Source of the DNA: Calditrichia bacterium
Lineage (GTDB): Bacteria > Calditrichota > Calditrichia > RBG-13-44-9 > J075
Length of the DNA stretch: 64,000 nucleotides
Reading direction: 5' to 3'
NCBI GenBank assembly: GCA_050633245.1
Contig: JBOEGD010000016.1
Span: 129,645 to 193,644 of the forward strand
Position 1 is the first letter of the stretch. Each line of letters opens with the position of its first letter. The position numbers were made by a program, and so were the translations under genes. Below, in pieces: positions 1 to 35,487 of the stretch. The notes under the pieces are model-generated. The model did no database searches and was not told the origin of the DNA. It was given only the letters and a program-made list of their open reading frames with translations.

Positions 1-268
1 AGATATGTTTATCGCGCCAGTGGCTATAGATGAATTTAGCCAAGCCCGACAACGCACGTTCAACACCATCCTCAATCTCGCAGAAAACAATCTGCTCGCC
101 AAGCTCGGCAGATTCAAGCGACGCTTCTATCAGAGGTGGGACAATGATCGATTTGTGTTCTCGCTCTTCAAAAGAAAAGGCATTGTTGCCGGTTGCGGTC
201 TTAATAGAAAAACCGCTGTAGAGCTTCATCAGCTCTGCCAGCGGCTTTTTCATACTATTTGCTACCAT
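1..268 (-). CDS. UPF0489-like protein, N-terminal part (runs off window start)
   Basis: Not in the ORF track. Manual translation from ATG 268 (or 253) gives MVANSMKKPLAELMKLYSGFSIKTATGNNAFSFEEREHKSIIVPPLIEAS...GLAKFIYSHWRDKHI, open to the edge. It starts 4 nt after the ALDH stop. The GNNAFSFEER motif is recalled from UPF0489 proteins. Confidence 0.6.
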   Translation of the reverse strand, partial: MVANSMKKPLAELMKLYSGFSIKTATGNNAFSFEEREHKSIIVPPLIEASLESAELGEQIVFCEIEDGVERALSGLAKFIYSHWRDKHI

Positions 269-272
269 ATCG

Positions 273-1703
273 TTAGGCCAATGTCGCCTGAACATGCAGC
301 GCACGCTGGCGGTAAAGATGTTCGAACAAGTTACCTTCATGCGGCTGATCCCAGGCAATTTTCATGGTAGGAACCGGTCCAATGTTCAAACGCTCTACAT
401 TCGGCGATGCAAATAATTCATTGACATAGTTCTGATCCTTTGTAATTGCCGAAACAACCAGAGTTGGCCCCATCTCATTCAGAATGCGATCCTGCGGCAC
501 TTCCACCACCGTTACAAACGGAAACAAGTATTCGCTGGATGCCAGTGGATGCTGCGGGTCTTCACAGTAGACAACCGTCGGTAGCAGAAATACGCAGTCA
601 TCAAGCTCTACCAGTCGGCTACCCTCACGGTATTTTGCCGTCAGGTCTTCAGCACCTTCGGTCTGCAGCTGACTATCTATTGCATCATTCAGCATATAGG
701 CCAGCTTCTTATTGGCAAAAGCTGCGATTTGGGCATTCGGATCATCCATCGTCGTTGCAGTAACCTTGGCAAGGCGCTTCGCCAGTTCTTCAGCAATTTC
801 ACGTCCACGACGCGGCACCCAAAGTCCTGAAGCATTGATGCAGGAACGTCCGCCATTTGCAACAACGGAATGTTCTACCACATCGAGATGCTGATTAAAA
901 TCGTCTACCTGGTCTTCACCAAAGAGGACCTTACTCCAGCCCGGTCCATGAATCTGAACGCGTTTGTCGTTCTTCCATGGTGCAACCGTGTTCTTATCAC
1001 CAAAGAACATGGAACGACCGGTGCGCAGTAAAATTTCACGTGCGCCATCATAGCTGGTGGGATAGTAGCCAAAAACTTCCGGCGGACAACCGGCAGCCAT
1101 AAAAGACTGTGCAATGCGATAAGGCGTCCACGGCTCCTGACTACCCGGCTTTAGCACAACCGGCACCTTCAGGGCGATGGCTTGAATCCAGAGCGAGTGA
1201 ACCCCGGGCGAATTGCTCGGCAAAATAGCTCCCAGAGCATTGGTTTCGCAGAGAAAATTTAGCGGCCTGCCATCTTGCTCAACCCAGCCTTTATCGAGAA
1301 TGGACAGATCGAGACCGCGGGTAAGTCCACCAAGCACTTCTTCCATGCCTTCCATAACCAGCGTTATTTTTGCCATATTGGTTCGGCAAAGTGCCTCCGG
1401 CATTCCGGTAGTGGCAGACAAATTGGTAATGTACTCTTCCGGTGTTTGAGTGCCGTCTCCCATCGGGAGTTCGCTTTCATTGAAGTATTTCGCGGCTCGC
1501 TTACACATGTCCAGCAACTCACGAATCGGAATAGCATCCAGAACCTTTTTATTATGGGCGGCATCGCGCATATCTTTGTTAATCAATCCGGGATTGGCCT
1601 GACTCATTTCTGCAACCGGCTCTCCGGTGCGGAAATGGGGAATCGTAACCGTAGTGAGGCTTTTATACGGTTTCCCGGCTCGTAATATGGGTATATGAAT
1701 CAT
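273..1703 (-). CDS. Aldehyde dehydrogenase-fold protein, EhpG/LuxC-like acyl-reductase type
   Basis: LPSNSP, LKPGSQEP, catalytic Cys in NGGRSCINAS, EYLFPF. HGPG replaces the canonical ELGG. Confidence 0.8.
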   Translation of the reverse strand: MIHIPILRAGKPYKSLTTVTIPHFRTGEPVAEMSQANPGLINKDMRDAAHNKKVLDAIPIRELLDMCKRAAKYFNESELPMGDGTQTPEEYITNLSATTGMPEALCRTNMAKITLVMEGMEEVLGGLTRGLDLSILDKGWVEQDGRPLNFLCETNALGAILPSNSPGVHSLWIQAIALKVPVVLKPGSQEPWTPYRIAQSFMAAGCPPEVFGYYPTSYDGAREILLRTGRSMFFGDKNTVAPWKNDKRVQIHGPGWSKVLFGEDQVDDFNQHLDVVEHSVVANGGRSCINASGLWVPRRGREIAEELAKRLAKVTATTMDDPNAQIAAFANKKLAYMLNDAIDSQLQTEGAEDLTAKYREGSRLVELDDCVFLLPTVVYCEDPQHPLASSEYLFPFVTVVEVPQDRILNEMGPTLVVSAITKDQNYVNELFASPNVERLNIGPVPTMKIAWDQPHEGNLFEHLYRQRALHVQATLA

Positions 1704-1732
1704 ACGGATATCTCCGTTTGGTTTTATTGGGT

Positions 1733-2842
1733 TTAATAAACACCTACAACGACTGACTGCTGAAAGCGCGAGAACAAACGCAGGTTCGATACGCCATCCC
1801 AGGGATAGGCATCAATCGGTTCAGCGCGTTCACCTTCATCGCGTTCTAGGAATCGTGGCATAAAGAATTCTTTAGTCAGCGTGGTTAAGATAACACGTCC
1901 GGTTTCACCATAATCAACAAGCTCATCAGGGTTGTCCGGATTGACCAGTTCAAACACAGCACGTGGATGCGGACCATAATAGGTAATGGCGTAATCGTCT
2001 TTCTGATCGAATGGCTTATTACAGGCCAGTCCCATTAGCGTGTTGCCATAGGTTGGTTGAAAATCGATTCCGGGAATCAACTCTTCACGTGCGAAGCGAT
2101 GAAATTGCGCATTCATCTCGGTTCCACCGCAAAAAATACCGGTTACACCATGCTTGACGAGCGAGATTTTCTCACAGAGAGACTCAAGTAGCTTCGGCGT
2201 GGTAAACACGCATTTTATATTGTCATGGGCACGAAGAATTTTCAGCGCCTGATCGATAACGTGTTGCTTATACAGCTCGAGCTCCTGCATCTTGCCGGCT
2301 TTAATGAGCTTGTTTACCCAGCGCGGATCGAGATCGACAAAAAAGCAGATACCGCCGCGGTGCTGAGCCAGATGCTCTACAGCCAGGCGCAAACGACGTG
2401 GCCCACTCGGACCAAGCATCAACCAGTCACCGCCTTTGGGGAAGGTCTCATCAGAAAGCGTTTCGCTGAACATTTCATAATCCGTCCGAAAATCGTTAAT
2501 ATTTATACGCGATTTCGGTACGCCGGTTGAGCCACCGGTTTCAAATATATTAATCGGACTATTTGCATACGGTTTCGGCACCCATCGTCTCACCGGGCCA
2601 CCACGCAGCCATTCGTCCTGAAAATGACCAAGGATTTTAAGATCGTTGTAACCACCGATCTCTTTGCGCGGATCAAAGTCCAGGTTCTCCGCGTAGTTCA
2701 GCCAGAAGGGACAACCGGTTTCAGGACTAAAGTGCCAGTCTACAATTTCGCGAACGTGAGTGTCCAGCTTATCCTGTGCTGCCGCAATCTTTTGAGACAG
2801 CGATTTATCTAGAATATCCATAAGTTCCTCATTATAAAGCAT
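1733..2842 (-). CDS. EhpF/LuxE/PaaK-like adenylate-forming enzyme (ANL superfamily, short form)
   Basis: WHFSPETGCPFWL, P-loop ETGGSTGVPK, YGNT, GETGRVILTTL, ERD. Likely start is MDILD. Confidence 0.75.
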   Translation of the reverse strand: MLYNEELMDILDKSLSQKIAAAQDKLDTHVREIVDWHFSPETGCPFWLNYAENLDFDPRKEIGGYNDLKILGHFQDEWLRGGPVRRWVPKPYANSPINIFETGGSTGVPKSRININDFRTDYEMFSETLSDETFPKGGDWLMLGPSGPRRLRLAVEHLAQHRGGICFFVDLDPRWVNKLIKAGKMQELELYKQHVIDQALKILRAHDNIKCVFTTPKLLESLCEKISLVKHGVTGIFCGGTEMNAQFHRFAREELIPGIDFQPTYGNTLMGLACNKPFDQKDDYAITYYGPHPRAVFELVNPDNPDELVDYGETGRVILTTLTKEFFMPRFLERDEGERAEPIDAYPWDGVSNLRLFSRFQQSVVVGVY

Positions 2843-2857
2843 CAGGTTTGGGGTTCG

Positions 2858-5011
2858 TTATTCTCCGATTCCAAAAAGATGGCTTTGGCCGCGAACGAAT
2901 ATCATACCATCTGCAATGGCCGGCGTGGCCATCACCACTTCTCCAACATCATTCTGAGCCACAATGCTATAGCTATCGCCGGCATCAGCTACGTAAATTG
3001 TTCCATCCTCACTGGCAAGGTAGATCAAACCGTCGGCAGCAACGGGAGACGCAGAGAATGCATAACCGCCACCACGTCCACCAAGACGCTCCCTAAACTT
3101 GCGTTCGCCGGTCAGTGCATCAAAGCAGCTAAACGTGCCGTTATTGGTACAAACAAACAGATTCTTCTCATAAATAATCGGCGTCGGCATATAAGGGCCA
3201 CCACGCTGAGTACTCCAGGAGATGTGATCACTGGACGTTTCGCCTTCGGCAAGAGAAATATCTCCTTTTGCGCCCGGTTTTATAACATAAATCGGTTGAA
3301 TGGGTCGATAGCCACTGGAAATGTAAAACATTCCATGAGCGACAAACGGCGTCGGAACAGCAATTTCCGAATTGCCTTTTAGCGTCCAAATCTCAGCACC
3401 CGTTTCAGGATTGTAGCCACGAATGCCGTGCGTGCCATTTGTCAGAAGCTCAGCCGCATCACCATCTGAATAAACGGTAGGACTAGCCCAGGAAGGAATC
3501 TCATCGCGATCGGTCTTCCAGCGCAGCTTACCGTCTTTCAAACCATAAGCAGCGATATAAGAGTCTTTCTGCTTATCACACTGTACAATCACCATATCGC
3601 GATAAATGATCGGTGAACTGGCATGTCCCCACTGATAGTCAGGATCGTAAAACCACCCTGAATCGAGATAACCAAGATCCTGCTTCCACAGCAGTTCTCC
3701 GTCAATATTGTAGCAGAATAAACCTTCTGCGCCAAACAGGGCAACAACGTATTTACCATTTGTTACCGGCGTTGAATTTGCCTGAGTGGCTTTGGTATGC
3801 CTTTTTACTTGCGGCACCCCCCGATACGCCTCGCGCTCCCATATGATGCTGCCATTCTTCTTGTTGATACAATAGACGCGCCAGGAATGCTCGGAAACAT
3901 CAGCGTCTGGCGCCACGTCACCATACAAGCCAACACGTAGTGCAGAGGATGTATCACTGCTTAGCGCGGTAGTTATAAAAAGTCGGTCTTTCCAAATTAT
4001 CGGACTGGAATGAGCCAATCCTGGAATGGGCGTTTTCCACTTGATATTTTTGCCGCTCTCGACATCCCACTCAACAGGCGGGAACTGCTTATCGGCAACG
4101 CCTGTTGCCCCCTGTCCACGAAATGAAGGCCAATTTTGAGCAACAACTTTGCCTTTAGGGCGAATGCTCGGTGCAGCCTCTTCCACAACGGCAGACTTTT
4201 CTTCTTCCGGCTGGCTGCGCTTAAAAATAAACTTTGAATTCCCCTGCTCCAGTTCGAAGCTCTCGGCTTCGCTTGTTCCTTGTGGGAAGCGAACCGTAAT
4301 ACCCTCAAATTCTACGGACTTGAATGTCGTCTCATCTTCCGGAGCATAGGTTAGTGCGGGCTGTCCCGGTACTACACCTTTTAGCGAACCATTTTCGATG
4401 GAGAAGGTGAGTTTCATCCCAAAATCGCTGTTATCATATTTTCCGACATAACGCTTAAGAACTGACTCCGATACCTTTTGCTCTTTCGGCTTCTCAATCG
4501 TCTTAGCTCCGGCTTTTTCCAAAGCTGCAACCATTTCAGGTTTCTCACCACTCTTCGCTGTAGCAAGGGCGCGGGAAAGCGCATCCGCATCGGCCTTTCC
4601 GCTTTCCAGAACGACCTGCAAAAGCTCTGCGTTATTTTCCTGAACCGCTGTTAACAGCACAGCATCTGCGCCTTCGGAACCACGTTCTAACAAAATTTTA
4701 ACAACGGTAGCATGCTTATTGTAAGAAGCCCAATCAATAGCAGACGCGCCATAGAAAGTATCTTTACGATTTAGCTCTGCGCCTTTATCGAGCAGTAGTG
4801 TAACAAGCTCAACATTTCCGCGATCACAGGCATAAGTAAGTGCCGTCACTTCATAGCGTCCGGTGGCGTTTACGTCTGCACCGTCAGCTAAAAGCTGCTT
4901 TACTTTTACAACATCGCCGGCACGAACAGCTTCCAGAAAAGCTTCATCGTTCTCTCCAGCAAAGAGAGACATAGCGCTAAAGAGGAGAAAAAACATGGTA
5001 TAAATCCGCAT
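2858..5011 (-). CDS. Secreted ankyrin-repeat + DUF3471-like + PQQ-like beta-propeller protein
   Basis: Signal peptide, ankyrin repeats (GADVNATGRYEVTALTYAC), LKRYVGKY domain, then WPSFRG and repeated SSP/TP..G..W propeller blades. Confidence 0.85.
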   Translation of the reverse strand: MRIYTMFFLLFSAMSLFAGENDEAFLEAVRAGDVVKVKQLLADGADVNATGRYEVTALTYACDRGNVELVTLLLDKGAELNRKDTFYGASAIDWASYNKHATVVKILLERGSEGADAVLLTAVQENNAELLQVVLESGKADADALSRALATAKSGEKPEMVAALEKAGAKTIEKPKEQKVSESVLKRYVGKYDNSDFGMKLTFSIENGSLKGVVPGQPALTYAPEDETTFKSVEFEGITVRFPQGTSEAESFELEQGNSKFIFKRSQPEEEKSAVVEEAAPSIRPKGKVVAQNWPSFRGQGATGVADKQFPPVEWDVESGKNIKWKTPIPGLAHSSPIIWKDRLFITTALSSDTSSALRVGLYGDVAPDADVSEHSWRVYCINKKNGSIIWEREAYRGVPQVKRHTKATQANSTPVTNGKYVVALFGAEGLFCYNIDGELLWKQDLGYLDSGWFYDPDYQWGHASSPIIYRDMVIVQCDKQKDSYIAAYGLKDGKLRWKTDRDEIPSWASPTVYSDGDAAELLTNGTHGIRGYNPETGAEIWTLKGNSEIAVPTPFVAHGMFYISSGYRPIQPIYVIKPGAKGDISLAEGETSSDHISWSTQRGGPYMPTPIIYEKNLFVCTNNGTFSCFDALTGERKFRERLGGRGGGYAFSASPVAADGLIYLASEDGTIYVADAGDSYSIVAQNDVGEVVMATPAIADGMIFVRGQSHLFGIGE

Positions 5012-5086
5012 ACTTGCTCCTGAAAGCTTGGTATTTCAATTTAAAAACATGAGTTGCCCAGAGCCCAATAGTTCACATAAAGACGT

Positions 5087-5114
5087 TGAATTTTGAACCC
5101 TGAACCCTGAATTT
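5087..5114. repeat. Heptamer tandem repeat TGAAYYY x4
   Basis: TGAATTT TGAACCC TGAACCC TGAATTT, directly after the stop of 5118..6578. Confidence 0.7.
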
Positions 5115-5117
5115 ATT

Positions 5118-6578
5118 TTACATATTTGCGTCTATTGCAAACAATGTCGTGCGGCTGGCAATATACAGAACACCATTATAAACGGTTGGCGTAGAGTATA
5201 CTGCGCTACCCATGTTTACTTCGTGAATCAGCTCTTTGGTTTTAGAAGCGCGAAGTACTGCAACATCGCCGTCTTCATCACCAATATAAACCTTACCATC
5301 CGTAACAAATGGTGATCCCCAAATGGCAGCAAATGTATCATAAATCCAGTGCTCTTTACCAGTGTTTACATCCAGGCAATACAGAAAACCGCTCAGATCG
5401 GAAATGAACATCAGGTCGTCGATAATTGCGGCGGTTGCCATGGTGCGATTGAAGTCATCACCACTGCGCTGCCAAATATTACCGGTTTCGGTAATGTCTC
5501 CGGTTTGGGAAGCATCGATGCAATACAAGTTACCAGGTGCTTCGCCGTGCTCCGGATCTTGTCCAACGCCAAGATAGACTTTACCATCCAGAAATACCGG
5601 AGTTGAGATCAGATTATTGCGCGTACCGGAACCACCAAGAATCCACTTGGAATCCTTCGGGTTACAGTCAAATTGCCAGATCAGGTCACCGGTTTTCGGA
5701 TCGAAGCTATATGCAACTCCATCCCCGCCGGGAAAAACCACCTGCTCACGGCCACCAGCTATACCATAAGCCGGATTGGCCCAAGTACCGTGAAGGATAT
5801 CTTCACCGGGAAGGTTGTTTTCCCAAACAACTTCACCGCTATTCTTGTTAATGGCAAGAAAGCTGGGTGCTTCAGGCGAAGGAATAATGATATGGCTTTC
5901 ATCGACACCATTCCCGGTCGTTAAATAAAGCATGTCTCCGACAAGCAATGGGCAACCAACAGCCAGGTTATGCGGGAATACATCCAGCTCATCGATGGTA
6001 TCCAACTTCCAGATAATATCTTCATCGATTTTGCTGTTTTCAACTTCATCCTTGTACGGTCCGCGATTTTCACCGTCCAGGAAACCATCCAGATCAGCAG
6101 CAATCACTTCAGCGCGATTAGACACATAATAAATAATGTCGCCTTCAATAGCAGGTGTCGAGCAAATGCCCTGCAGCGGCCAGTCATTTACCATACCAGA
6201 CGGCAGCTTGGCGTGGGCTGCCTGCCAGAGAAATTCACCCTTGTCTTCAGTAAAAACCATCAGGTTTCCGCGATCGCCACCCAGCTTGGGATTGCGAACA
6301 GCTTCATTGTTGGTGGCAATAACTACTTTGCCGTCAACAACCTGCGGGTTGGTATAGGTTTGTGATCCCAGCTTGGCAGTCCACTTAATGTGCTTACCGG
6401 TTTCCGGATCCCAGCTATGCGATATTCCGGTTGCTTCCTTTACCATATTGCGCGTAGCATCAAATCCATACATTGTCAGCACCGGAGCATCGGCCGATTT
6501 ATCAGATTTCGTCTCCCTAGCTCCCGGTGTACTTACCAGAAGCAAGAGCAGTATAACTGCAACTATTTTTAACATCAT
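5118..6578 (-). CDS. Secreted PQQ-like beta-propeller protein (planctomycete-type)
   Basis: Signal peptide, KWTAKLGSQTY, GICSTP, GQDPEHGE, IWGSP, VYSTP blades. Confidence 0.85.
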   Translation of the reverse strand: MMLKIVAVILLLLLVSTPGARETKSDKSADAPVLTMYGFDATRNMVKEATGISHSWDPETGKHIKWTAKLGSQTYTNPQVVDGKVVIATNNEAVRNPKLGGDRGNLMVFTEDKGEFLWQAAHAKLPSGMVNDWPLQGICSTPAIEGDIIYYVSNRAEVIAADLDGFLDGENRGPYKDEVENSKIDEDIIWKLDTIDELDVFPHNLAVGCPLLVGDMLYLTTGNGVDESHIIIPSPEAPSFLAINKNSGEVVWENNLPGEDILHGTWANPAYGIAGGREQVVFPGGDGVAYSFDPKTGDLIWQFDCNPKDSKWILGGSGTRNNLISTPVFLDGKVYLGVGQDPEHGEAPGNLYCIDASQTGDITETGNIWQRSGDDFNRTMATAAIIDDLMFISDLSGFLYCLDVNTGKEHWIYDTFAAIWGSPFVTDGKVYIGDEDGDVAVLRASKTKELIHEVNMGSAVYSTPTVYNGVLYIASRTTLFAIDANM

Positions 6579-6609
6579 ATCTTAAATTCTCCTCAGAAAA
6601 ATTTTATGC

Positions 6610-8877
6610 TTACTTTGCTGTTACTTTCACATTGTCGTAATAGTGCTCGGTATAAGATACCCCGATAATTCCCGGGCTACCCTGCATTACCGGATACGGA
6701 TCTTCAGTCGTAATTGACCAATCTGTCGGCTCAGCTTCGTCTCGTGGCCAAACCTTACCGCGGATAATTGCTTTACCGCCTTCATAGGAGACATCGAGCT
6801 TCATCGTATACCAGCGATTCTCTTCCCACTTAAACGGCACTACTTCCTGAATACGGTATTCCGAGACCCAGGAGCGCAGTTCCAGGCGATTGCGCTTACC
6901 CATCAAGTCCATTTCGTAGCCATGAGAGATTAGTCCAATATCCGAACGCTTACGCTTGTTCCGCTGATCCATAAAATCGGTCTGAATCACGTAGCCCTTC
7001 ATGTCCGACGGTCCAAAATAAGTAGAATGACGCTGAATACCTCTCTTTGCGAGCGGCTTTGAAAGTACCTTATTACCATCTTCCAGCGTTTTTACAATGA
7101 ACTTACCACCGGGTGATCGCGAACTGCTTGTGCCAATCCACGGGCTCGGATTCCCACCATCCTCAATATCTTCAAAGTCTTCCGTCCAAGGCAAATTGGG
7201 GAATACCCGAACGCGAGCGGTTCCACTGACTCCGTCTACCGTCGCCATAACTTTACCGGCATGCATTTTTTTCATGTTCGTTGGAAACGTCATGCTTCCA
7301 TCGGAAGCAATTGAACCCTCAACACCCTGCAGTTTCCATTCAGCAGCGGACTCACGCAGAAAGCGGCCAGCCTGATCGAACAAACGTGCACGGAAGGTGA
7401 CCTTATCACCGGCACGAGCATCGAGTTCGGCAGGAACAACCTGTACCCAGGCTACCGCAGCGTCTTTGGTAGACTGCGGTTCAGCCAACACACGCTCCGG
7501 CATTTTGCCAGTGACGAAAGGACGCGCTTTATCGCCAAGGCAATAAACGCCTACCTCGGTAGCGAAATATACACGGCCATAAGCAATCGCTACAGATCCA
7601 TATATCTCTGCCGCGCGCTCTTCAGTTTTCATATGAATTTCTTCTTCGTCCAAAACCTCAACGCCGGTAGCGGAAGGCTTGAGGATATACATGCGACCAT
7701 TTGTTTCAGTCACATAAATTTTGCCGTCAGCCCAAACCGGAGACGGTCGGCCGATTGTTCCAAGGCTATGCTCCCACATTTTCTCGCCGGTTTTGGCATT
7801 TAGGGCATACATCATTGCGGCATTGTCAATTGCGTAGATAACGCCATCTTTAATCATAGGTGATGAGTTACCGATTTCTGCATCATATCGCCATACTTCG
7901 TTTGTCTTTGTAATGTCGCCACTACCGCTGGCGTTAATCGCTACTAAACGTCCCATTTGCGGGGTATCAACATTTTCTTCACTATGCCCGGCATACACCA
8001 TATTCCCATCGATAACAACAGAAGAGTTCATTCCACGCTTGCTCAGCTTGAATTCCCAAACCTTTTCACCGGTACGGGCTTTCATAGCGTAAACCGTTCC
8101 ATCAGCGTTTCCGCCAATCAGCAGACGTTCGCCATCAATAATTGCAACGCTTGGCATGGTATAAATGTTTGGTGCTTTAAAAACACCGCTCGGTGTTGCG
8201 GTCCAAACGGTTTCACCGGTGCGCTTATCGAAAGCAAAATGACGGTGTTTCATTGGCTTCTGCTCACCCCAACCAGCGGAGACATAACCGGTGATGAGCA
8301 AATCTTCGTCGATTAGCGGACTGGTGCTACGGCCGCCATAACCGGTGCGGGTTCCAAATTCTTCCGTAAGAGAACGCTTCCAAACAATCTTGCCATCTTT
8401 GTCGAAGCAGTGTATCATCGCGCCACTACCAACCGCATAAACATAACCGGTTTCAGCGTCCCCACCCATGCTAGCCCAACCCAATCGATTAAACGGAACG
8501 GATGTTAAGCGCATATTGTAGCGGTATTCCCAGAGCTGGGCGCCGGTTCCGGCATCAAAACAGGCAACTATCTCCTGCTTGGAAATCCCATCTCCGGTTC
8601 TACCGATCACATAAACACGACCGTCTTGAACTATCGGCGTTGAACGACCGATAAAGTCGGCCTTCCAAAGCAGGTTTTCACCTTCCTGAGACCAACTGTC
8701 TATCAGGCCTTTCTCTGTAGAGACACCATTAAGCGTTGGTCCGCGCCAGTTGCGCCATTCAGTCGTTTCTACCATCTTACTGTCTTTAACCATTTTACTG
8801 TCTTTAACGTTTCCGCTGCTGCACGCGGCAAGCAGGGCAAAGATAAAGGCAGAGGCTATCAGCAAATGAAATCGCAT
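6610..8877 (-). CDS. Lipoprotein: PQQ-like beta-propeller + Ig-like domain + C-terminal jelly-roll (DUF1080/ConA-like) domain
   Basis: Lipobox LAAC, WRNWRGP, propeller blades, VQVVPAE Ig-like segment, IRGKVWPRDEAEP..W C-terminal motif. Confidence 0.8.
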   Translation of the reverse strand: MRFHLLIASAFIFALLAACSSGNVKDSKMVKDSKMVETTEWRNWRGPTLNGVSTEKGLIDSWSQEGENLLWKADFIGRSTPIVQDGRVYVIGRTGDGISKQEIVACFDAGTGAQLWEYRYNMRLTSVPFNRLGWASMGGDAETGYVYAVGSGAMIHCFDKDGKIVWKRSLTEEFGTRTGYGGRSTSPLIDEDLLITGYVSAGWGEQKPMKHRHFAFDKRTGETVWTATPSGVFKAPNIYTMPSVAIIDGERLLIGGNADGTVYAMKARTGEKVWEFKLSKRGMNSSVVIDGNMVYAGHSEENVDTPQMGRLVAINASGSGDITKTNEVWRYDAEIGNSSPMIKDGVIYAIDNAAMMYALNAKTGEKMWEHSLGTIGRPSPVWADGKIYVTETNGRMYILKPSATGVEVLDEEEIHMKTEERAAEIYGSVAIAYGRVYFATEVGVYCLGDKARPFVTGKMPERVLAEPQSTKDAAVAWVQVVPAELDARAGDKVTFRARLFDQAGRFLRESAAEWKLQGVEGSIASDGSMTFPTNMKKMHAGKVMATVDGVSGTARVRVFPNLPWTEDFEDIEDGGNPSPWIGTSSSRSPGGKFIVKTLEDGNKVLSKPLAKRGIQRHSTYFGPSDMKGYVIQTDFMDQRNKRKRSDIGLISHGYEMDLMGKRNRLELRSWVSEYRIQEVVPFKWEENRWYTMKLDVSYEGGKAIIRGKVWPRDEAEPTDWSITTEDPYPVMQGSPGIIGVSYTEHYYDNVKVTAK
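8771..8806. repeat. In-frame 18-bp tandem duplication (VKDSKM x2) in lipoprotein linker
   Basis: accatcttactgtcttta / accattttactgtcttta, 1 mismatch. Confidence 0.85.
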
Positions 8878-9949: not shown

Positions 9950-10005
9950 TCTGGCGTCTCGCCTCTCGCCTCTCGCCTCTCGCCTCTTGCCTCTTGCCTC
10001 TTGCC
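9950..10005. repeat. Heptamer tandem repeat (TCTCGCC x4, TCTTGCC x3, plus one degenerate unit)
   Basis: Read directly. It abuts the MscS stop codon. Confidence 0.95.
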
Positions 10006-11117
10006 TACTCCGCTTCCAAAAACGTCAATTCCTGCCTCGTTACCAGTCCTTTTTCCAGAAACTGTTCCATCACCAGCTCCGTCATTTCACTGGCAAAAGG
10101 AAATTCATATCGGACATCCAGCACATAAGCCTTCAGACGCATCTTAAGCAAGGACCGTCCCTGATGGATTTCATTTTTAAACAGCACCACAATCGGCTTG
10201 TTCAGAAAGACATAGCGCGATACCGCGGCCGCGCGATAGGCAATATCGCGAGCTTTATGCTGCTCTATATGTGCCGGAAGGAAGAACTCGGCAACGACCT
10301 GACAGTTCGACTCACCAGAGTTGGCATTGGACACCGACTGATTGATAATCTCGCCATTTGGTACCGAAACCGTATTGTCATCCGGTGTAACGAGGCGCAC
10401 GGTACGGAGTCCAATATTGATGACCTCGCCATAGTCGGTACCGATCTGGATCTTGTCCCCCACCTGAAACGGACGATCAAAAATGATCATGATTCCACCA
10501 AAGATATTCTTGAGAATATCCTGTGCAGCGAAGGTTAATCCAATTCCCGCCGAGGCAATCAGAGTAATCAGAGAGCTGCTGGGTGCCTGCATTATCACCG
10601 CTATGATGAAGTAAATAACAATCACCCAGCCAATAATGCGAATAATGGGCACCGAGCGCTTGATCAGCAGACGAAAGTTTGCCCAGCGCTCCGCAAGAAT
10701 TTCAGAAAGTGAGGTAAAGTATTTGAAAACGATATACGTAATGATGATTAGAAAAATCGATTTTAGAACTTGCGACAGCGTCAGTTCCCACTCTTCTTTG
10801 GGTTCTAAAACGGGTGTAGAATCAGTGGGTTTGGCGGCATCTGCTTGTCCATTCGCAACTGACTGATCCGTAGCAGAATCGGGCATTGACTTAGCTGCGC
10901 TGTCTTTCTCGGCATCCTCAGTTACCGCGACAATGCCAACTCCTGTGGCCGTCGCAGCATCCTGCAGCTTCTCCTTCAGTTCTTGCTGAACTTTTTTTGC
11001 TTCCGCAGCCAGCGAATCCGGATTATAGCCGGTAATGTAAGGCTGTGCGGAAATCGCAAAAGAAGCTGCAATAACAAACAGTAATATGTAGAAGCGTATT
11101 GAAGCCATTATAAACAT
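10005..11117 (-). CDS. MscS-family mechanosensitive channel with N-terminal signal/periplasmic extension
   Basis: GLTFAAQDILKNIFGG, DRPFQVGDKI, GEVINIGLRT, VPNG. Confidence 0.92.
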   Translation of the reverse strand: MFIMASIRFYILLFVIAASFAISAQPYITGYNPDSLAAEAKKVQQELKEKLQDAATATGVGIVAVTEDAEKDSAAKSMPDSATDQSVANGQADAAKPTDSTPVLEPKEEWELTLSQVLKSIFLIIITYIVFKYFTSLSEILAERWANFRLLIKRSVPIIRIIGWVIVIYFIIAVIMQAPSSSLITLIASAGIGLTFAAQDILKNIFGGIMIIFDRPFQVGDKIQIGTDYGEVINIGLRTVRLVTPDDNTVSVPNGEIINQSVSNANSGESNCQVVAEFFLPAHIEQHKARDIAYRAAAVSRYVFLNKPIVVLFKNEIHQGRSLLKMRLKAYVLDVRYEFPFASEMTELVMEQFLEKGLVTRQELTFLEAE

Positions 11118-11256: not shown

Positions 11257-14200
11257 TTAATGCAAAATGTTGCGCATTGTAAGCGCACGAACCACCGGAC
11301 GATAGAGAAATGGATGAATACGGAAACCGGTTGGTTCATCCAGCAAAATGCCGCGCCGGCTCAGTGCGCGCAGAATACTCAGACTTTTTTCCTGCTCCTG
11401 ATGGAAAACAGAGGCATGCTCGTGAATCTCCAGCATATCATGCTGAACGAGTGCACCAAGCGTAAACAGCTCATCACCTTCCATTTGGAAGACAAAAGAA
11501 TAGTCAAAATCGATAACCGGATTTAAAACCAGCTCTTCTTCAGTGATTTTTTGAATGGCACGCAACCAGTAAAGCATCGCCACAGAAATATTGCCGGCAG
11601 AAATTTCCTGAAGCTGTTCGAAGAACATTTCGCGCAAATACACCTGCTCCTTACCTTCACGCATCATCTTGCGAAATTTTCGCTGCCGCTTGATTTTTCC
11701 CGGGATGTCGAACACCAGCCGATAACCGGTAACGCGGTGACGCTTTATCAGAATGTCTTCTACCATTTCTTTTTGCAATCCACCCAGAGATAAAACCCGT
11801 CCGAAATAACGACCAAATTTTAAAACGCGATCGAGATAGTCCCAACTATAGCGATTACAGCTAAAAATCCAAAAGACCTGCTTGGAAGACCGGATGATCA
11901 GCATCATAAAACGTTCGAGAAGCTGGAACCCGTCTACCGTTTTCAAAAATAAATTCTGGATATTTTCGACAATCAGAACAACCGGCTCTTCACGTTCAAC
12001 CAGCTGTTTTTCAAGATCTTCCCAGCTGTCCCCGGCAACGTCTGGAAAACCAGCCTTGAACATCTTCATGAACGTTTTTTCATCCTGAAGCGTTTCAGTA
12101 AAATCTACACGGTAGGTTTTCTCATCCTCAAACAGCGGCATTGCAAAGTTTATAAGCGTTGTACGTCCACTCCCCTTCTCGCCAACGATAATCGTCGTAA
12201 CGTCCATTCCGTTTTTCCAGTTCTGGAAATCGCTGCGTATCACTTCCAATTCCTTATCACGACCGGAAAAGAATCGTTCATCTTCCAAGGGCAATAATTG
12301 AAAAAGACGCTGATAGACATAGGGTAAATTATCTATTCGCTGATTGGTTTCGCTCAAAAAGTGTGCGAGCGTTTCACCCGCCATATCAGGCATATTCATT
12401 AGCCCGATAGTGCGCATTAATTCTACCCACCAAGCACGGATTTCTGTGCCCAAACTTTTGGCACTGCGCCAAAGATCGGCCCAAACACTCTTCAGGAAAC
12501 GCCAGGAATCCTTGCGCCACTGCAAGAGGCGCTGCCGCGCTTTAGCCTGCATTACCTGAACCTGTAGTGCCAACAACTTCTCGCTGTCCCTCAGGTCCTG
12601 CAAACGCACGCAGAAGGTGCGCGCTAACTCGAAAATGGCACCTTCGCTGTCGACGCGCATCTTGTCGAAGCGATCGATAAACAGATTGATCTTGCCACCG
12701 GCACGTTCAAGACCTTCGGTAAGCATTTTTCGCGCTTCGGGAAGCCCGTCTTCCTGTTCCAACATACCAAGTGCGGCATCGAGGTTGAACTCAACAATCT
12801 CATCAATTTCGGAAATACCCAGCAGCATCTTTTCAATACTTCGACTGAGCTTCTTGCGAAACTCGGTCAGTTCATTATCAAATGACAGGAAGAATTCATT
12901 TTCGATAATTTCCTTTATCTGAACATCATCAACCGAGGAGCGCGGCGGCTTATTTTCTTTGTCTCGAACACGAAGAATCGTCTGTTTGGGCGGCAAGATT
13001 TCTATAGCCGACTTTACTTCCTGCTGGAAGCCACGCATAAGCAGGCTAAGTTTGGAACGCAGAAGCGTGTCCATAATATTGGGTAAAATTTCATTGCGGA
13101 GAAGATTAACCAACTGTCGATTTTCTTTTGCAATGGCGCGACGTAATTCTCGCTTTTGCTTGCGCAATTCAACCTTGCTGATTTCACCGTCGGCATCGCC
13201 GCTTTTATTCGCTGCAGCTTCAGCCTGCTTGGCAAACTTTGCGACCGATTCCTTTATTATCGCACCGGTTTCAGCTAAAACCGGCTTCATATCTTCTTCT
13301 ATCTTTTGACGAAAAGTTGCGTTCAGCCTCAAATATTCGCAGCCAATGGTAAGCTGTAGAGAAAACAGCGCGATCTCCTGTTCCCAACTTTGACTTTCGG
13401 CATCGGTGTGAATCTTCCAGGCATTTCTGTCTCGATTAAAGTTAGCCGTTAATTCGGCATTCTTTTCGCGCAGCTTGCTCTGAGAATAAGAGGCAGGTTT
13501 CAGCTCACCTTTTTGTGCATTTTCCCACTCTTTTCGAAAAAGTTCGCTGTTGGTTTGCCACCAGGTTTCAAAGCGCTCCATCGCAGCAGCTTTGCTTTGC
13601 GTCGTGCCGCGCAACGTTTCTGTAATCTTTTCTGTTAAGCCACGCTGCTCGCGAATATGGTCGACTAAATCCAGCGCCTGATTGCGAATCCAAACCTGTT
13701 CCGCGTTTTGCAACAGTAATAGTAGTTGGTTAACCGAGCGATCGATCTCATAGATTTCATTCAGATCTTTTGAAGCTTCGTATAAAAACTCACTCCATTC
13801 GCGAAGCAAAACACGCTGGAAGGGCTGGAAAAGGTGTAGACGGATAAAAGCATGCTGGGGAAAGTTTTCTATAACAGCTTTGTCAAATGGGTTCCACCAT
13901 TTGCCATTGGGCAGCGGAGTAGCAAAGAGCGCCTCTTCGGGCAGTTCCCGCAGCGTAAAGATGCTTTGTTTAATGAAGCTGCCAAAAAATTCGCGCGCCG
14001 GAAGTTCATCGGGCACATAGTGCAATCCTTTGCACCATTTGACCAATTCACGTGAATACTTTAACAGTTCCTGCCAAACTTCTTCGAGCGTTCCTTCACT
14101 CTCTATTCGCTGATTCACGCGATCCAACGCAGCGTTCAAATTCTTGCTATAGCTGGTCAGCTTGCCATCGTGCATGCCGTACCACTCGTCCAAACGCTGC

Positions 14201-14340
14201 TCAAGATAAGCCACTAGAGAGGGCTTTAGCTGCTCCAGAGCCTGTTCGGAAGACTGCACAGCTTCAACAGAGGACTTCTCCGGAACCTGCTCTGTAGTTT
14301 GCGTGCTTTCTGCAGATGATTTTTCTTCAGTAGAGTTCAA
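11257..14340 (-). CDS. Large helical protein with C-terminal P-loop NTPase (AAA+/STAND-like) and winged helix
   Basis: FFSGRDKEL, Walker A-like GEKGSGRTT, Walker B-like VLIVENIQNLF, SAGN, C-terminal wHTH-like LSRRGILL..FRIHPFL. Confidence 0.75.
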   Translation of the reverse strand: MNSTEEKSSAESTQTTEQVPEKSSVEAVQSSEQALEQLKPSLVAYLEQRLDEWYGMHDGKLTSYSKNLNAALDRVNQRIESEGTLEEVWQELLKYSRELVKWCKGLHYVPDELPAREFFGSFIKQSIFTLRELPEEALFATPLPNGKWWNPFDKAVIENFPQHAFIRLHLFQPFQRVLLREWSEFLYEASKDLNEIYEIDRSVNQLLLLLQNAEQVWIRNQALDLVDHIREQRGLTEKITETLRGTTQSKAAAMERFETWWQTNSELFRKEWENAQKGELKPASYSQSKLREKNAELTANFNRDRNAWKIHTDAESQSWEQEIALFSLQLTIGCEYLRLNATFRQKIEEDMKPVLAETGAIIKESVAKFAKQAEAAANKSGDADGEISKVELRKQKRELRRAIAKENRQLVNLLRNEILPNIMDTLLRSKLSLLMRGFQQEVKSAIEILPPKQTILRVRDKENKPPRSSVDDVQIKEIIENEFFLSFDNELTEFRKKLSRSIEKMLLGISEIDEIVEFNLDAALGMLEQEDGLPEARKMLTEGLERAGGKINLFIDRFDKMRVDSEGAIFELARTFCVRLQDLRDSEKLLALQVQVMQAKARQRLLQWRKDSWRFLKSVWADLWRSAKSLGTEIRAWWVELMRTIGLMNMPDMAGETLAHFLSETNQRIDNLPYVYQRLFQLLPLEDERFFSGRDKELEVIRSDFQNWKNGMDVTTIIVGEKGSGRTTLINFAMPLFEDEKTYRVDFTETLQDEKTFMKMFKAGFPDVAGDSWEDLEKQLVEREEPVVLIVENIQNLFLKTVDGFQLLERFMMLIIRSSKQVFWIFSCNRYSWDYLDRVLKFGRYFGRVLSLGGLQKEMVEDILIKRHRVTGYRLVFDIPGKIKRQRKFRKMMREGKEQVYLREMFFEQLQEISAGNISVAMLYWLRAIQKITEEELVLNPVIDFDYSFVFQMEGDELFTLGALVQHDMLEIHEHASVFHQEQEKSLSILRALSRRGILLDEPTGFRIHPFLYRPVVRALTMRNILH

Positions 14341-17589: not shown

Positions 17590-20500
17590 ATGGCGAATTC
17601 AGAACATCTTGCCATAATCAAGTCCGGCGTTGAGGAGTGGAACGCCTGGCGAAAAAAGAATCTGGACATTTCTCCCGATTTACGTGACGCAAACTTGCGC
17701 GGCGCTCAGCTTGATAATGCCATTTTGCGGGATGCCGATTTGTCAGGTGCAAATCTATCCGGTGCATCGCTTAAGGAAGCAGATCTTAGCAAAGCGGTTA
17801 TAAATGAAGCCAATCTGTCTGGTGCAGATCTTAGCCGGGCAAATCTATATCGCGCAAAAATGCGGCGCTGCAACCTTACCGGTGCAGACATGCGTCAGGT
17901 CGTGCTCTATCAGGCTAATCTCACCTACGCAAATCTCTCGCGAGCCAATTTAAGCAAGGCCAACCTGCGAAAAGCCAATGTGTCTAAGGCAGATCTCAGT
18001 AAGGTCTACTTCAGCAAAGGCAAAGCCGAAGAAACCAGTTTTAATGAAGCCAATTTAGAAAAAGCGAACCTCTACGAGTCCAATCTTGTACAGGCCGACC
18101 TTACCGATGCCAACCTGTCCGGTGCGGTAATGTATAAAGCAAATCTTTCGGAAGCCGATTTCGAAGGCGCCAATCTTAAAAATGCCAATCTAAACCTGAC
18201 CAATTTACAGAACGCGACGCTCAACCGCACTCAGCTCGAAGGTGCCAAGCTTACCGGTTCTACCGTGAGCAATATTTCGATTCATGATGCAGTGCATAGC
18301 AATAGCGAACAGCTCGACCTTGTTGTAACGCAATCTGATGGCGTGCTGGTTAAATGTGATGATATGCGCGTTGCCAATCAGCTTGAAAAGCTGTTAAGGC
18401 ACGATGATTTTGAAAACACGCTCGATTCCAACAAGCTGGTCGTATTGCTCGGCAACTTTTCCGCCGATCGCAAGATAATCAAAGGACGTATTCTGGAAGA
18501 AGTGCGTAAAGACGGCCTCAATCCTCTGCAGTTGGAATGTCTGTCTACACCGGAAGCTGAATTTAGAGCGAAGCTCAATCGGCTGGCCGGTGCAACAAAC
18601 TGGTTGATTTTCGATGCTACGCAGGCAGCCGACCTAATCGATCAGGTTCTGCCGATTCTTACCAATTACCCGGACCTGAAGGTAACGGCGTTTGTGGAAT
18701 CCGCTACCCGTTGGCAGGTGGCTACACCATTTGCTCATTATGTAGAGCGCTTTCCGCTTGGAGAATATGAAAACCCCGAAGATATTCCCGAACTACTTTC
18801 CTTTAGCCGCTCGCAGGAAACTCAGGCACCGCGCCTGATTATTCTTCCGGACGACGCTGCGGCCGTAGAAGAGCCACAAGCGCAACCTCAAGAAATTCCA
18901 GATTCCGAAGAGACGATCCAGCTGAATCCTGCTGAGATTATGGCACTTGCCGGTAAGGATGCAGAAATAGAGGCTGAGGTAGAAGAAAATCTTGAAGCAA
19001 TTAGCGAAGAGCTGGTTACCGAGGCCAAAGAGGCAGAAGAAGTTCCTATTGAGGCCGTAGAGGAAGAAATTTCTGTAGAGGAAGACGTTGAAGAAGAAGA
19101 TATTGCGGACGAAGCCCCTGTCGAAGGGCAAAAAGAAGAGGAACAAATAGAAGAAACTGCTAGGGATGAAGACGATTCGGTTGAAGAATTTACCGAAGAA
19201 ACCCTCAGCGAACATTATACCGGAGATAACTCCGATAGTTTTATCGGCGAGAATGTAGTGATTGTCCCGGCGAACGGCCAGGCGCCGAGCGTTGCAGCCA
19301 GCAGTGAGACCAAGGCGGAAGACATTGTCATAACCGCGCCGAAAGGTTCAAAAAATCCATTCGCCGATGTAATGAATCCGGTCGAGAAAACCACCAAGAA
19401 AAAAGTGGATCTGAAGTTTCCAACTGCCGGACAAGAACTGATGCCCGCTCAGAAAACGGTTGTCATTTTAGAAGGCGATGAACGTCAACAGACGGTGAAA
19501 CCGAAATCGAATTCCAGGATATGGATCGGTCTCGCAGCAGCCGCAGTGCTATTTAGCGGCATGTTTTTTGGTTGGAATCGCCTGCATAGCGACGTAATGA
19601 TTGTTGCACCAAAATCTGCGAATGCCTTTATTCAGCTAAACGGCAATGTGGTAAGTCTACATAAACAGGAGGGCGACAAGAGTTATTATCTCGCAGAATC
19701 CCAGTTTATCGGCAACACGCCGCTAACTGTTTTTTCAACTCAGATTTCTGAAATGGGACAGGAAGAATTTGTCCGCTATAAGCGTTACGAAGGCGAAATA
19801 GACGTGTCTCGTGGTGAAGATGGCATCTTTACGTATGAAGTCGGATTCCAGCCGCTTTATCGCGTTAGCAAGGTGGCAACGGGTAAATTTCCGGCAATCG
19901 ACGCAGCCGGAAAGACTATTGCCTACACCAAGGCAGCAGACAATAGCAAGCGCAATGCTCGTCAAGAGCTATATATTAAGGATTTACAGAGTGGTACAGA
20001 GACTAAAGTCGAGCCGCGAAACCGGCGCTCCCTAAATTGGGATGGCGAGCGGCCTTACCTGCTGGGTGATGGTGAAAGCCTTTTTATTGGCGCCTACCAG
20101 TATCGTGCCGATAAAACGCTGCCGTATCGCGTGGATTTGGCAAGTGGACAAATGACTAAGCTCGATTTACCGGCAAATGAAAAGTGGCTGAGCTTTTTAC
20201 CGCTGGCCGGTGGAGAAAAACTGGCATTTCGCAATAAACTGTATGACGCAGAAGGCAATGAATTAAAAGAGTTCAGCAGCAATCGCCCGTATCTTGATAA
20301 GCTTTATCCCGCGGGAGACGATGGCCTGTTGTTTTTTGACAAGACCAAGAATAAGAAAAACCGCATTAGCTTCGACTGCTACTATAGCAAGTTGGGTTCA
20401 GCAACTCCACAAAAGCTTTTCTCGGTTTCAGCAAACATTCCGCCTTTTGTTTCCGCATCCAAGAATGCAGAGACCGTTGTCGTGAGCACTTATTCCGGAT

Positions 20501-20745
20501 TGAATCGCGAGTTTCTGTCTACCGTGCGAATGTGGAAAGATGGTCAGTTTGTTGATCTCTCACCACGCTATATCGATGGCTCGAGAGACTATGCAGACGG
20601 TAGTGAATACCATCAGACAGAAGCAGTCGTTGACGCCTCCGGTAAGCACATCGTCTACGAATATGAGAGTAATATCTATCTAATTGAAATTATGGATGGC
20701 GTGACGTTCGCAGATATTCAGCAGGCGGAAAAGCCGGCGAAGTAA
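17590..20745 (+). CDS. Pentapeptide-repeat protein with TIR/NDT-like domain, acidic linker, TM helix and exported TolB-like propeller
   Basis: MANSEHLAII..GVEEWNAWR followed by a long run of ANLSG/ADL-type pentapeptides, VVLLGNF...WLIFDAT domain, Glu-rich tract, IWIGLAAAAVLFSGMFFGW TM helix, and FPAIDAAGKTIAY blades. Start moved to ATG 17590 (GAGG RBS). Confidence 0.8.
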   Translation: MANSEHLAIIKSGVEEWNAWRKKNLDISPDLRDANLRGAQLDNAILRDADLSGANLSGASLKEADLSKAVINEANLSGADLSRANLYRAKMRRCNLTGADMRQVVLYQANLTYANLSRANLSKANLRKANVSKADLSKVYFSKGKAEETSFNEANLEKANLYESNLVQADLTDANLSGAVMYKANLSEADFEGANLKNANLNLTNLQNATLNRTQLEGAKLTGSTVSNISIHDAVHSNSEQLDLVVTQSDGVLVKCDDMRVANQLEKLLRHDDFENTLDSNKLVVLLGNFSADRKIIKGRILEEVRKDGLNPLQLECLSTPEAEFRAKLNRLAGATNWLIFDATQAADLIDQVLPILTNYPDLKVTAFVESATRWQVATPFAHYVERFPLGEYENPEDIPELLSFSRSQETQAPRLIILPDDAAAVEEPQAQPQEIPDSEETIQLNPAEIMALAGKDAEIEAEVEENLEAISEELVTEAKEAEEVPIEAVEEEISVEEDVEEEDIADEAPVEGQKEEEQIEETARDEDDSVEEFTEETLSEHYTGDNSDSFIGENVVIVPANGQAPSVAASSETKAEDIVITAPKGSKNPFADVMNPVEKTTKKKVDLKFPTAGQELMPAQKTVVILEGDERQQTVKPKSNSRIWIGLAAAAVLFSGMFFGWNRLHSDVMIVAPKSANAFIQLNGNVVSLHKQEGDKSYYLAESQFIGNTPLTVFSTQISEMGQEEFVRYKRYEGEIDVSRGEDGIFTYEVGFQPLYRVSKVATGKFPAIDAAGKTIAYTKAADNSKRNARQELYIKDLQSGTETKVEPRNRRSLNWDGERPYLLGDGESLFIGAYQYRADKTLPYRVDLASGQMTKLDLPANEKWLSFLPLAGGEKLAFRNKLYDAEGNELKEFSSNRPYLDKLYPAGDDGLLFFDKTKNKKNRISFDCYYSKLGSATPQKLFSVSANIPPFVSASKNAETVVVSTYSGLNREFLSTVRMWKDGQFVDLSPRYIDGSRDYADGSEYHQTEAVVDASGKHIVYEYESNIYLIEIMDGVTFADIQQAEKPAK

Positions 20746-20776
20746 ACGGTGAACAGCGATCGGTGAACGGTGGAAT
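20742..20776. repeat. Heptamer tandem repeat GTGAACG-like x5
   Basis: GTAAACG GTGAACA GCGATCG GTGAACG GTGGAAT, overlapping the stop codon. Confidence 0.7.
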
Positions 20777-20820
20777 TTAAAACCATTGTCCGATGCCCGA
20801 TGTCTCCCGGCTGTCCGGGA

Positions 20821-21710
20821 ATGCCCGATGTAACTATTGACATTCCCCTCTCCCCTACCTTTATTACATAACTCCCTTCAAAAAAAATAGCGTTTTCAAC
20901 CACGGTCTACAGCGGAACCGCTTATGGAACCTGTAACTACTTTACCTTAGCTGCAGTTTACGCGCTTGCCAAAGAAAGCGGACTGACTGACTTTCTGGTA
21001 AAACAGCCGAAGACAGTGGTAGAGAAGCTGCTGCAAAAGGAGATCACCAGTAAAGTTACCGGAAGCAGGTTTTTACGTGCTTACTTCACGCCACAGGTGA
21101 GTGGCAAGAGCTGGAAGAAGAATTACCGGAGGTCCGTGAGGCCGTATCATTTGCAAAAAAAGACTGATGCTGAATTTGCATGGCACGTCGCCTATGATGC
21201 CTACCTTTTAATACGCCGAACCGGCTTACTTACTGAGTCTTATTCTATTCCTGAGGAACTGGAAAAGTCGCATTTAAGAAAAAAGATAAATCCATTTTAC
21301 AGAGAGTATACAATGGACAAGCGCTGATTCAACAAACTTGGGGCTCGCTGAATAAAGCGATGGATTTAAATAAGCTACAGGAACAACTTTGTCTTGAGCT
21401 TGATGATAAAGACAGCCTGCAAATCAGCTACGGAAATCAGGCACTCATTCTGAAAGAATGAGGAAGGCTCGACGAGGCTCTAAAATTGCAAAAGAAAAAG
21501 GAAAAAATATGTTTGGAAATAAATAATCGCAGCAGCCTTGGTTATTGCTGGTGGCAGATGGCAGAACTCTATGAAAAATGGAAAAACACTGGAGAGGCGC
21601 AAAAATATGCAGAAAAAGCGCTGAAGATATTTACCGAGTTAAAAATGCCGCGTGAGCGCGATGCAGTTCAGGAATTGGTGGATGGGTTGGAATTGTCGCG
21701 TGGGTCATGA
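20821..21710 (+). pseudogene. Degraded tetratricopeptide-repeat (TPR_12-type) gene
   Basis: Reconstructed ...DKSILQRVYNGQALIQQTWGSLNKAMDLNKLQEQLCLELDDKDSLQISYGNQALILKE*GRLDEALKLQKKKEKICLE. TGA at 21459 sits at the repeat's Trp position, there is a frameshift near 21265, and TAA at 20869. The 5' boundary is uncertain. Confidence 0.75.
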
Positions 21711-35026: not shown

Positions 35027-35038
35027 GAGTTAAGCCCC

Positions 35039-35467: not shown

Positions 35468-35487
35468 AAACATATTGGCAGACTTAG

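Follow-up and report, generated by a model that had tools for sequence, protein, structure and literature searches.

A conserved four-gene core pairing a GriC/GriD-like adenylase and reductase with PQQ-like propellers in a Calditrichia bacterium and other bacterial phyla

In the LuxE/LuxC system a carboxylic acid is adenylated, held as an acyl-cysteine and released as an aldehyde with NAD(P)H, and LuxE carries a C-terminal acyl-acceptor Cys. For grixazone, the accessible text of one report states that GriC adenylates 3-amino-4-hydroxybenzoate (3,4-AHBA) and that GriD reduces the acyl product (PMC10179220, citing Suzuki 2007), and the available part of another that EhpF-O convert phenazine-1,6-dicarboxylate (PDC) to an antibiotic (PMC3175449). 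Here, a gene pair that looks like a GriC/GriD-type two-protein carboxylic acid reductase, placed outside any phenazine cluster, is described from a Calditrichia bacterium (assembly GCA_050633245.1, contig JBOEGD010000016.1, positions 129,645 to 193,644; this whole stretch of 64,000 nucleotides is called the window below). The adenylase and reductase genes and two propeller genes, P755 and P486, form a conserved unit of four genes, not six, which is common to Poribacteria, Latescibacterota, Acidobacteriota, Gemmatimonadota, Planctomycetota and KSB1/Calditrichota-like bacteria. Enzymes of this kind are already known, and the cluster is undescribed: the literature searched, outside which most subscription papers lie, contains no description of it, and the statement of the initial annotation that no pathway of this composition has been described holds within that literature.

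The map of open reading frames (ORFs) agrees with the initial annotation in giving six co-oriented genes separated by 4-106 nucleotides (nt), all on the minus strand, with intergenic gaps of 31, 106, 15, 29 and 4 nt in the order given here:

6610-8877, minus strand: P755, propeller protein of 755 aa with a lipobox-like LAAC; core gene
5118-6578, minus strand: P486, propeller protein of 486 aa with a PQQ_2 match; core gene
2858-5011, minus strand: ankyrin propeller of 717 aa, with ankyrin repeats, a DUF3471-like domain and a propeller; not core
1733-2821, minus strand: EhpF/GriC-like truncated ANL adenylating enzyme of 362 aa, matching PDB 3hgu
273-1703, minus strand: EhpG/GriD-like protein of 476 aa with the aldehyde dehydrogenase (ALDH) fold and an Aldedh match
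1-268, minus strand: 5′ part of a UPF0489-like gene, start ATG 268, cut by the window edge; bystander

Neighbourhoods of adenylase relatives were compared in 80 loci, namely the best 80 of at least 587 relatives in one GTDB scan, a sample that favours close relatives, under-represents Planctomycetia and contains no Verrucomicrobiota. Orthologues of P755 (40-56% identical) and P486 lie directly upstream of the adenylase in 36 of the 80 loci, with a gap mostly below 400 nt; these comprise 15 Poribacteria, nine Acidobacteriota, three Latescibacterota, two Gemmatimonadota, two Planctomycetota, four unclassified genomes and one Patescibacteria-labelled record. P486 orthologues (40-65% identical) are present in 38 of the 80, the two P486-only loci being cut by contig ends, and some PQQ-like propeller is found in 65. 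The reductase lies within 10 kb of the adenylase in 61 loci and is its neighbour in 58 of the 65 loci with at least 2 kb of downstream sequence. The initial annotation had named absence of these propeller subfamilies beside the enzyme pair in other genomes as an outcome that would refute it, and the 36 genomes show them together. Its six-gene unit survives in part: P755, P486, the adenylase and the reductase are conserved, but the UPF0489-like gene occurs in 0 of the 80 loci and the ankyrin propeller in two, on the opposite strand. P755/P486 and the enzyme pair are very probably linked in function in some way.

The two genes that drop out can be dealt with briefly. The UPF0489-like edge ORF matches one annotated UPF0489 protein at 44% over 64 aa (E=4e-10), its 90-aa fragment gave no Pfam match and nothing from ESM Atlas, and it is a bystander. 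The 717-aa protein carries ankyrin repeats and a weak DUF3471 match besides PQQ_2, and its homologues (49-54% identical in the propeller) stand near the cluster, divergently oriented, only in L010 and L021; it is a locally recruited member of the WPxWRG-type paralogue family.

The adenylase ORF was called at 1733-2842 (369 aa), and the start at ATG 2821 is preferred because a GAGGA site lies upstream of it and the database form has 362 aa; the gap to the ankyrin propeller then grows from 15 to 36 nt. The 362-aa protein aligns over its full length with EhpF (PDB 3hgu, E=8e-46), both ending in GVY, and shares 31% identity with EhpF of Pantoea; in a profile comparison with the PDB, phenylacetate-CoA ligases come next (E ~1e-6). 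It has the short ANL form lacking the C-terminal subdomain (no AMP-binding_C match in the Pfam scan) and, as in EhpF-type systems, an adjacent ALDH-fold partner with catalytic Cys and Asn. This 476-aa partner is 26% identical (E=2e-37) to the protein in the EhpG position in Pantoea and has an Aldedh match at E=5e-18, and its N164, H252 and C288 are invariant in 34 of 34 aligned sequences. At the ALDH general-base position, HGPGxSK was found in 50 of 63 scanned matches, QGPG in one and no regular-expression match in 11 (the printed counts sum to 62); we take this HGPG to correspond to the general-base Glu, motif ELGGK, of classical ALDHs. NCBIfam scores for classical hydrolytic ALDHs are all at most 34 bits against cut-offs of at least 448. 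With N164 and C288 kept and HGPG in place of the general-base Glu, the protein suits an acyl-transfer/reductase role, and it is predicted to be the acyl-transfer/reductase subunit of the pair. The adenylation-reduction pair of EhpF/EhpG type that the initial annotation proposed outside a phenazine cluster is supported by homology.

In GriC/GriD, EhpF/EhpG and EsmB1/B2, too, an ALDH-fold protein comes after a truncated ANL adenylase; identity was measured to the Pantoea pair, and GriC/GriD are likened through the Pantoea EhpF/EhpG sequences and the published description, not through their own sequences. LuxE/LuxC share the reaction logic proposed for the window pair, but the window adenylase ends in VVVGVY, without the C-terminal acyl-acceptor Cys of LuxE, and a Pfam scan to E 0.05 gave AMP-binding and Aldedh only. 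As neither the LuxE nor the LuxC family was matched, the Lux parallel drawn in the initial annotation is kept as an analogy of logic, and the biochemically described precedent is GriC/GriD.

The adenylase has at least 8000 relatives; the best 120 share at least 77% identity, those with names among them being KSB1 or Calditrichaeota, and across phyla the adenylase retains 66-80% identity, the range given for the clade being 66-83%. In a tree of 111 rows the window adenylase falls within an 87-row clade apart from EhpF (Shimodaira-Hasegawa-like approximate likelihood ratio test, SH-aLRT, 99, no bootstrap) and, inside it, within a 41-row subclade (SH-aLRT 98) of which all 37 of 37 genome loci show the window arrangement; the outer part of the tree is unsure, with long branches. 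The clade carries a GP[ST]GPRRLR motif, with RRLR in 120 of the 120 top matches, where EhpF and most distant rows have GPH; its occurrence in the GTDB loci is partly built in, the motif having served as the search pattern. Judged by these sequences, the EhpF-like pair is a separate, highly conserved clade. Unlike GriC/GriD and EhpF/EhpG, then, the window pair stands in a clade of its own with GPRRLR for GPH and no phz genes, and the neighbours of its clade are instead exported propellers, a HemN-like enzyme, a GT4 protein and an ABC transporter. Specifically, the core genes of the ehp/esm phenazine-tailoring clusters (phzA/B, D, E, F and G) are missing from the 64-kb window and from all 80 loci, tblastn with five Pantoea Phz proteins at E<=1e-3 giving 0 matches in either; lux families were likewise missing when the operon and most ORFs of at least 200 aa in the window were scanned with Pfam. 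On both counts the initial annotation had reported the same for the window.

The neighbours of more distant relatives tie the wider family mostly to aromatic acids, not to phenazines alone. Streptomyces proteins labelled 'arylcarboxylate reductase' match at 31-33%. Distant relatives carried on plasmids adjoin phz genes, pabB and DAHP synthase, a polyketide synthase with naphthoate synthase (here with no reductase partner) and, in a haloarchaeon, a symporter, an amine oxidase and a penicillin acylase. In P0202 and P0218, distant EhpF-like domains stand behind aminotransferase-like and zinc alcohol dehydrogenase-like domains (fusion judged by eye). Other apparent fusions were rejected: 16 longer proteins, 15 of them single sequences and most with one domain cut at the junction, are likely read-through, and in L029 and L071 the long ORFs in which P486 appeared fused with the adenylase are frame overlaps in GC-rich DNA. 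A 190-aa gene of L057, read by eye as chorismate lyase, was dropped after giving no match in Pfam (E<=1) or PDB (E<=10), as was a link to the planctomycete dibromo-anisic acid genes baaAB, the accessible part of the paper on baaAB describing no such cluster. A link to thienamycin thnN/thnO was set aside as well, no paper in support of it being present in the literature searched.

On the propeller side, all three window proteins score above the cut-off of the Pfam family PQQ_2 (PQQ, pyrroloquinoline quinone), and their N-termini, judged by eye, resemble signal peptides, in line with the three exported PQQ-like propellers of the initial annotation. P755 (PQQ_2 E=3e-40; AlphaFold2 mean predicted local distance difference test, pLDDT, 91.7) is predicted to be an exported 8-bladed PQQ-like beta-propeller, lipoprotein-like in the window, with two C-terminal all-beta domains that have no Pfam match above cut-off and were barely covered by the fold searches. 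In nine Poribacteria loci (L007, L008, L009, L011, L012, L013, L015, L018 and L037) P755 is split into two ORFs, one of ~420-445 aa for the propeller and one of ~306-323 aa for the C-terminal beta domains. For P486 (PQQ_2 E=1e-25; AlphaFold2 pLDDT 87.3), ESM Atlas returned PQQ_2 clusters only. When loops were assigned to propeller faces from DSSP strand order and conservation was mapped on, 30 of 53 polar loop residues of P486 proved conserved on one face against 6 of 39 on the other (p=8e-5, which is indicative only since the aligned sequences are related). The conserved face, rich in invariant His, Asp, Glu and Cys, contains C139, H203, D226, H229, H263, D341, E343, H344, E346, D434 and E435, and P486 is a candidate periplasmic enzyme or metal/ligand-binding protein.

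The propeller models are 8-bladed and nearest to YxaL (Z 37), BamB, tetrathionate hydrolase (TetH) and PQQ dehydrogenases. While this fold is common to all of these and to PQQ alcohol dehydrogenases (Z 28-37), identity to these matches is only 13-24%, and all three window propellers are far under the family cut-offs, at 50-89 bits against 285 for BamB (TIGR03300/PRK11138) and 22-70 against 480 for type I PQQ alcohol dehydrogenases (TIGR03075). A vicinal Cys-Cys is present in 0 of 32 P486 and 1 of 28 P755 sequences. All three also stay below the ACSF4-propeller cut-off, which a small propeller found with the cluster in other genomes exceeds (206 against 133 bits). Eukaryotic ACSF4/AASDH offer a partial parallel, in that an adenylation domain is fused to a PQQ-like propeller; here, in contrast, adenylase and propellers are distinct proteins, the latter apparently exported, and no recurring carrier domain is seen.

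The association of the pair with propellers noted in the initial annotation recurs in other genomes, but the pathway extends beyond what the window contains. The wider cluster, as classified from protein families, is made up of an iron-containing alcohol dehydrogenase (Fe-ADH; 21 of the 80 loci), a HemN-like radical SAM protein (18), a GT4 protein (33), a LolD/FtsX-type ABC transporter (FtsX permease in 22), a TonB receptor (11) and a halogenase-like flavoprotein (6), together with the small propeller (19); PaaK-like proteins and sodium symporters are found in four loci each, EamA-like and Vgb-like proteins in eight each, and no other biosynthetic family recurs in three or more of the 80. The Fe-ADH keeps the Asp/His metal-ligand motifs in 21 of 21 sequences, and an ADH accompanies the pair in the lomofungin cluster too. 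The radical SAM protein resembles HemN/ChuW, though it stays under all cut-offs, and in the PDB it is related to HemN and to NocN, a methyltransferase. Two halogenase motifs, WxWxIP and FxxKxS, are present in 6 of 6 sequences of the flavoprotein, with CmlS as its best hidden Markov model match, below cut-off; the GT4 protein has a CGxC near the N-terminus, invariant in 21 sequences.

These genes occur in two layouts: (i) P755, P486, adenylase, reductase, ADH, small propeller, radical SAM, propeller, TonB receptor and flavoprotein, and (ii) adenylase, reductase, GT4, ATPase, permease and propeller. L023 and L077 combine parts of both, which suggests one pathway split two ways. Some loci have features of their own. 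Two adenylase copies flank the GT4 gene in two Blastocatellia (L058:1161-6439 and L064:969-6201), the second copy grouping with a planctomycete sequence in the tree. The Vgb-lyase-like protein, of 233 aa, sits between adenylase and reductase in its eight loci, which are L017 (11216-11917) and seven Poribacteria, and L017 also has a creatininase/MftE-like gene. In L004 the gene immediately after that for radical SAM (18471-20903) encodes a propeller with a fused enterochelin-esterase-like domain.

A cultured carrier appears to be Tuwongella immobilis. In the portion of PMC8567305 that was available, Table S3 gives the gene order as a propeller, PaaK, an 83-kDa PF13360 protein with signal peptide, a 75-kDa PF13360 protein, a DUF1559 gene, a 45-kDa COG-H hypothetical protein, three other genes, a PF00171 protein, an Fe-ADH, a 40-kDa propeller and a HemN-like protein, which for the shared genes is the order of L057. 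GMBLW1_45340, 45330, 45310 and 45270 are the candidate orthologues. By label-free quantification the 83-kDa, P755-like protein reaches 3.4-5.3e9 (soluble fraction), the 75-kDa, P486-like protein 1-3e9 (detergent fractions), the 45-kDa, adenylase-like hypothetical 2.4e9 and the PF00171 protein 0.6-0.7e9, with DnaK_4 at 1.7-1.9e9 for reference; going by that material, the syntenic cluster is well expressed in Tuwongella. The same source lists 28 'bamB' paralogues in T. immobilis and, downstream of the cluster (GMBLW1_45230-45150, table S3), genes for GcvH-like, radical SAM, squalene-cyclase-like, polyprenyl synthase and ApbE proteins.

The four genes are, on balance and by a modest degree, best read as the core of a biosynthesis-and-export pathway whose small molecule is handled by dedicated periplasmic propellers. 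Every chemical step of it is an inference, drawn from what could be seen directly, namely homology, conserved gene order, folds and the conserved face of P486. Firstly, the EhpF-like protein would, by homology, adenylate a carboxylic acid. This acid is probably aromatic, and it may bear another anionic group, to which the Arg-Arg motif would hold on. Secondly, going by GriC/GriD and the residues kept, the acyl group would pass to Cys288 of the EhpG-like protein and be released as an aldehyde with NAD(P)H. Thirdly, gene order in other genomes suggests that the Fe-ADH may make the alcohol, and that the HemN-like radical SAM protein, the GT4 protein and sometimes the halogenase-like flavoprotein may tailor it. 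Finally, the LolD/FtsX-type ABC transporter would export the product into the periplasm; there it may be bound or completed by the dedicated propellers, chiefly P486, and salvaged by a TonB receptor or sodium symporter. In the initial annotation, too, the propellers may bind or use what the pair makes.

Several observations weigh against this pathway. The 80 loci are not independent, being the best 80 of at least 587 relatives and including 15 Poribacteria. P755 shows no bias towards one face (7 of 37 against 4 of 23, p=1.0). P486 is lacking from the DNA stretch analysed in 31 of the 33 GT4-type loci, nearly all of them Acidobacteriota, and any propeller is lacking in 15 of the 80 loci (5 of the 44 with full flanks). 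Orthologues of the Fe-ADH and radical SAM genes, and of those for GT4 and the permease, are missing from the 64 kb of the window itself, although the operon continues past its edge. In Tuwongella, the genes are inferred to be orthologous from order, size and Pfam/annotation, not from sequence, and the 40-kDa propeller was undetected in the proteome as given in the accessible part of PMC8567305.

The general plan has analogues. In the heme d1 (NirF/NirN) and pqq (PqqU, quinoproteins) systems, a cofactor is synthesized in the cytoplasm and exported, and has periplasmic propeller partners and a TonB receptor; the biosynthetic enzymes are without homology to those described here, and NirN is a fold match only (Z 22-23). 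By this analogy, a more specific and still tentative version, possible but rather doubtful, is that the product is a periplasmic cofactor, ligand or covalent modification for the 'BamB-like' (WPxWRG) propeller family, as pqq serves quinoproteins. This family is large and mis-annotated in Planctomycetes, Acidobacteria, Poribacteria and their kin. P755, P486 and the small propeller would then mature or load the product, and the recruited propellers beside the cluster, the ankyrin propeller of the window among them, would be its clients.

Among the alternatives to a biosynthesis-and-export pathway with dedicated propellers, the one that survives best, though unlikely, is an envelope component: the alcohol would be glycosylated into a glycolipid or anchor and extracted by LolD/FtsX, with the propellers as non-catalytic carriers or scaffolds like BamB and LolA. 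The ATPase is indeed closest to LolD (E=1e-75), the best structural matches of the propellers are YxaL and BamB, and the P486-like Tuwongella protein was in detergent fractions according to the available part of that study; yet the His/Asp/Glu/Cys face of P486 is less what a scaffold would need than what catalysis or metal binding would, the 80 loci have no recurrent genes for fatty acids or polyketides, and annotated adenylase relatives are in aromatic-acid clusters. Uptake and breakdown is less probable again. Here, the TonB receptor and symporter would import a compound that cofactor-free propellers cleave, in the manner of tetrathionate hydrolase, and the pair and ADH would reduce or detoxify the acid. 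Both importers do occur (in 11 and 4 loci, as given above), TetH is among the fold matches (Z ~31) and the haloarchaeal relative has a symporter, amine oxidase and penicillin acylase beside it, but radical SAM, GT4 and an ABC system of exporter type are the kinds of gene that belong to biosynthesis, reducing an acid at the expense of ATP is costly, and the syntenic Tuwongella proteins were abundant in the growth condition of PMC8567305, as far as its accessible part goes.

Co-location without shared function, in which numerous propeller genes drift beside a conserved housekeeping enzyme pair, is very unlikely. A planctomycete with 28 'bamB' paralogues, as listed in the part of PMC8567305 available, and the many loci that lack P755/P486 would agree with it; the same two orthologues in the same order in five named phyla do not. 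The same loci also contain 52 further propellers outside the three dedicated subfamilies (in 37 of the 80), 49 of them longer than 200 aa and falling into 16 groups at 45% identity. Of these 49, 29 are no more than 700 bp away from a core gene, where random placement predicts 12.1, and 0 of 200,000 simulations reached 29; independent recruitment events are fewer than 29, since some propeller groups are single inherited genes. Lastly, the two enzymes might be orphans that tailor the product of a phenazine or lux pathway whose genes lie at another site, as EhpF being the only solved close relative could suggest. This is extremely improbable: phz genes are absent from the window and from all 80 loci, the clade is separate from EhpF and has GPRR for its GPH, and there is no LuxE or LuxC Pfam match.

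The promoter and terminator scan stayed near chance (13 against 12.5 and 16 against 9.6). As for the rest of the window, the remaining genes scanned are ordinary. A few stretches may be recorded:

10005-11117, minus strand: mechanosensitive-channel gene, following the next entry
11257-14340, minus strand: coiled-coil/AAA protein of 1027 aa
17503-20745, plus strand: protein of 1080 aa; pentapeptide repeats at the N-terminus, acidic linker, probable membrane span, C-terminal region without annotation
34286-40027, plus strand: lower-GC (38-42%) and possibly acquired run of co-oriented genes; most products have export-like N-termini, and one of the beta-lactamase family and a GldB-like one are among them
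54908-56644, minus strand: protein of 578 aa in which helical motifs recur, matched only weakly by DUF4046 (E=0.09)

The GriC/GriD-type pairs known so far occur patchily, as tailoring enzymes in clusters for antibiotics, whereas the clade described here is highly conserved across several abundant soil, marine and sponge phyla. High conservation across phyla, together with a fixed cluster with exported propellers, points to an unrecognised, possibly housekeeping metabolite. The same bacteria carry 'BamB' paralogues without a known job (the 28 of Tuwongella, by the available text of PMC8567305, are an example), and the cluster is a possible clue to dozens of propeller genes in many little-studied bacteria. 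A large new set of acid reductases made of two proteins, and apparently working without a carrier domain, would come with it as well.

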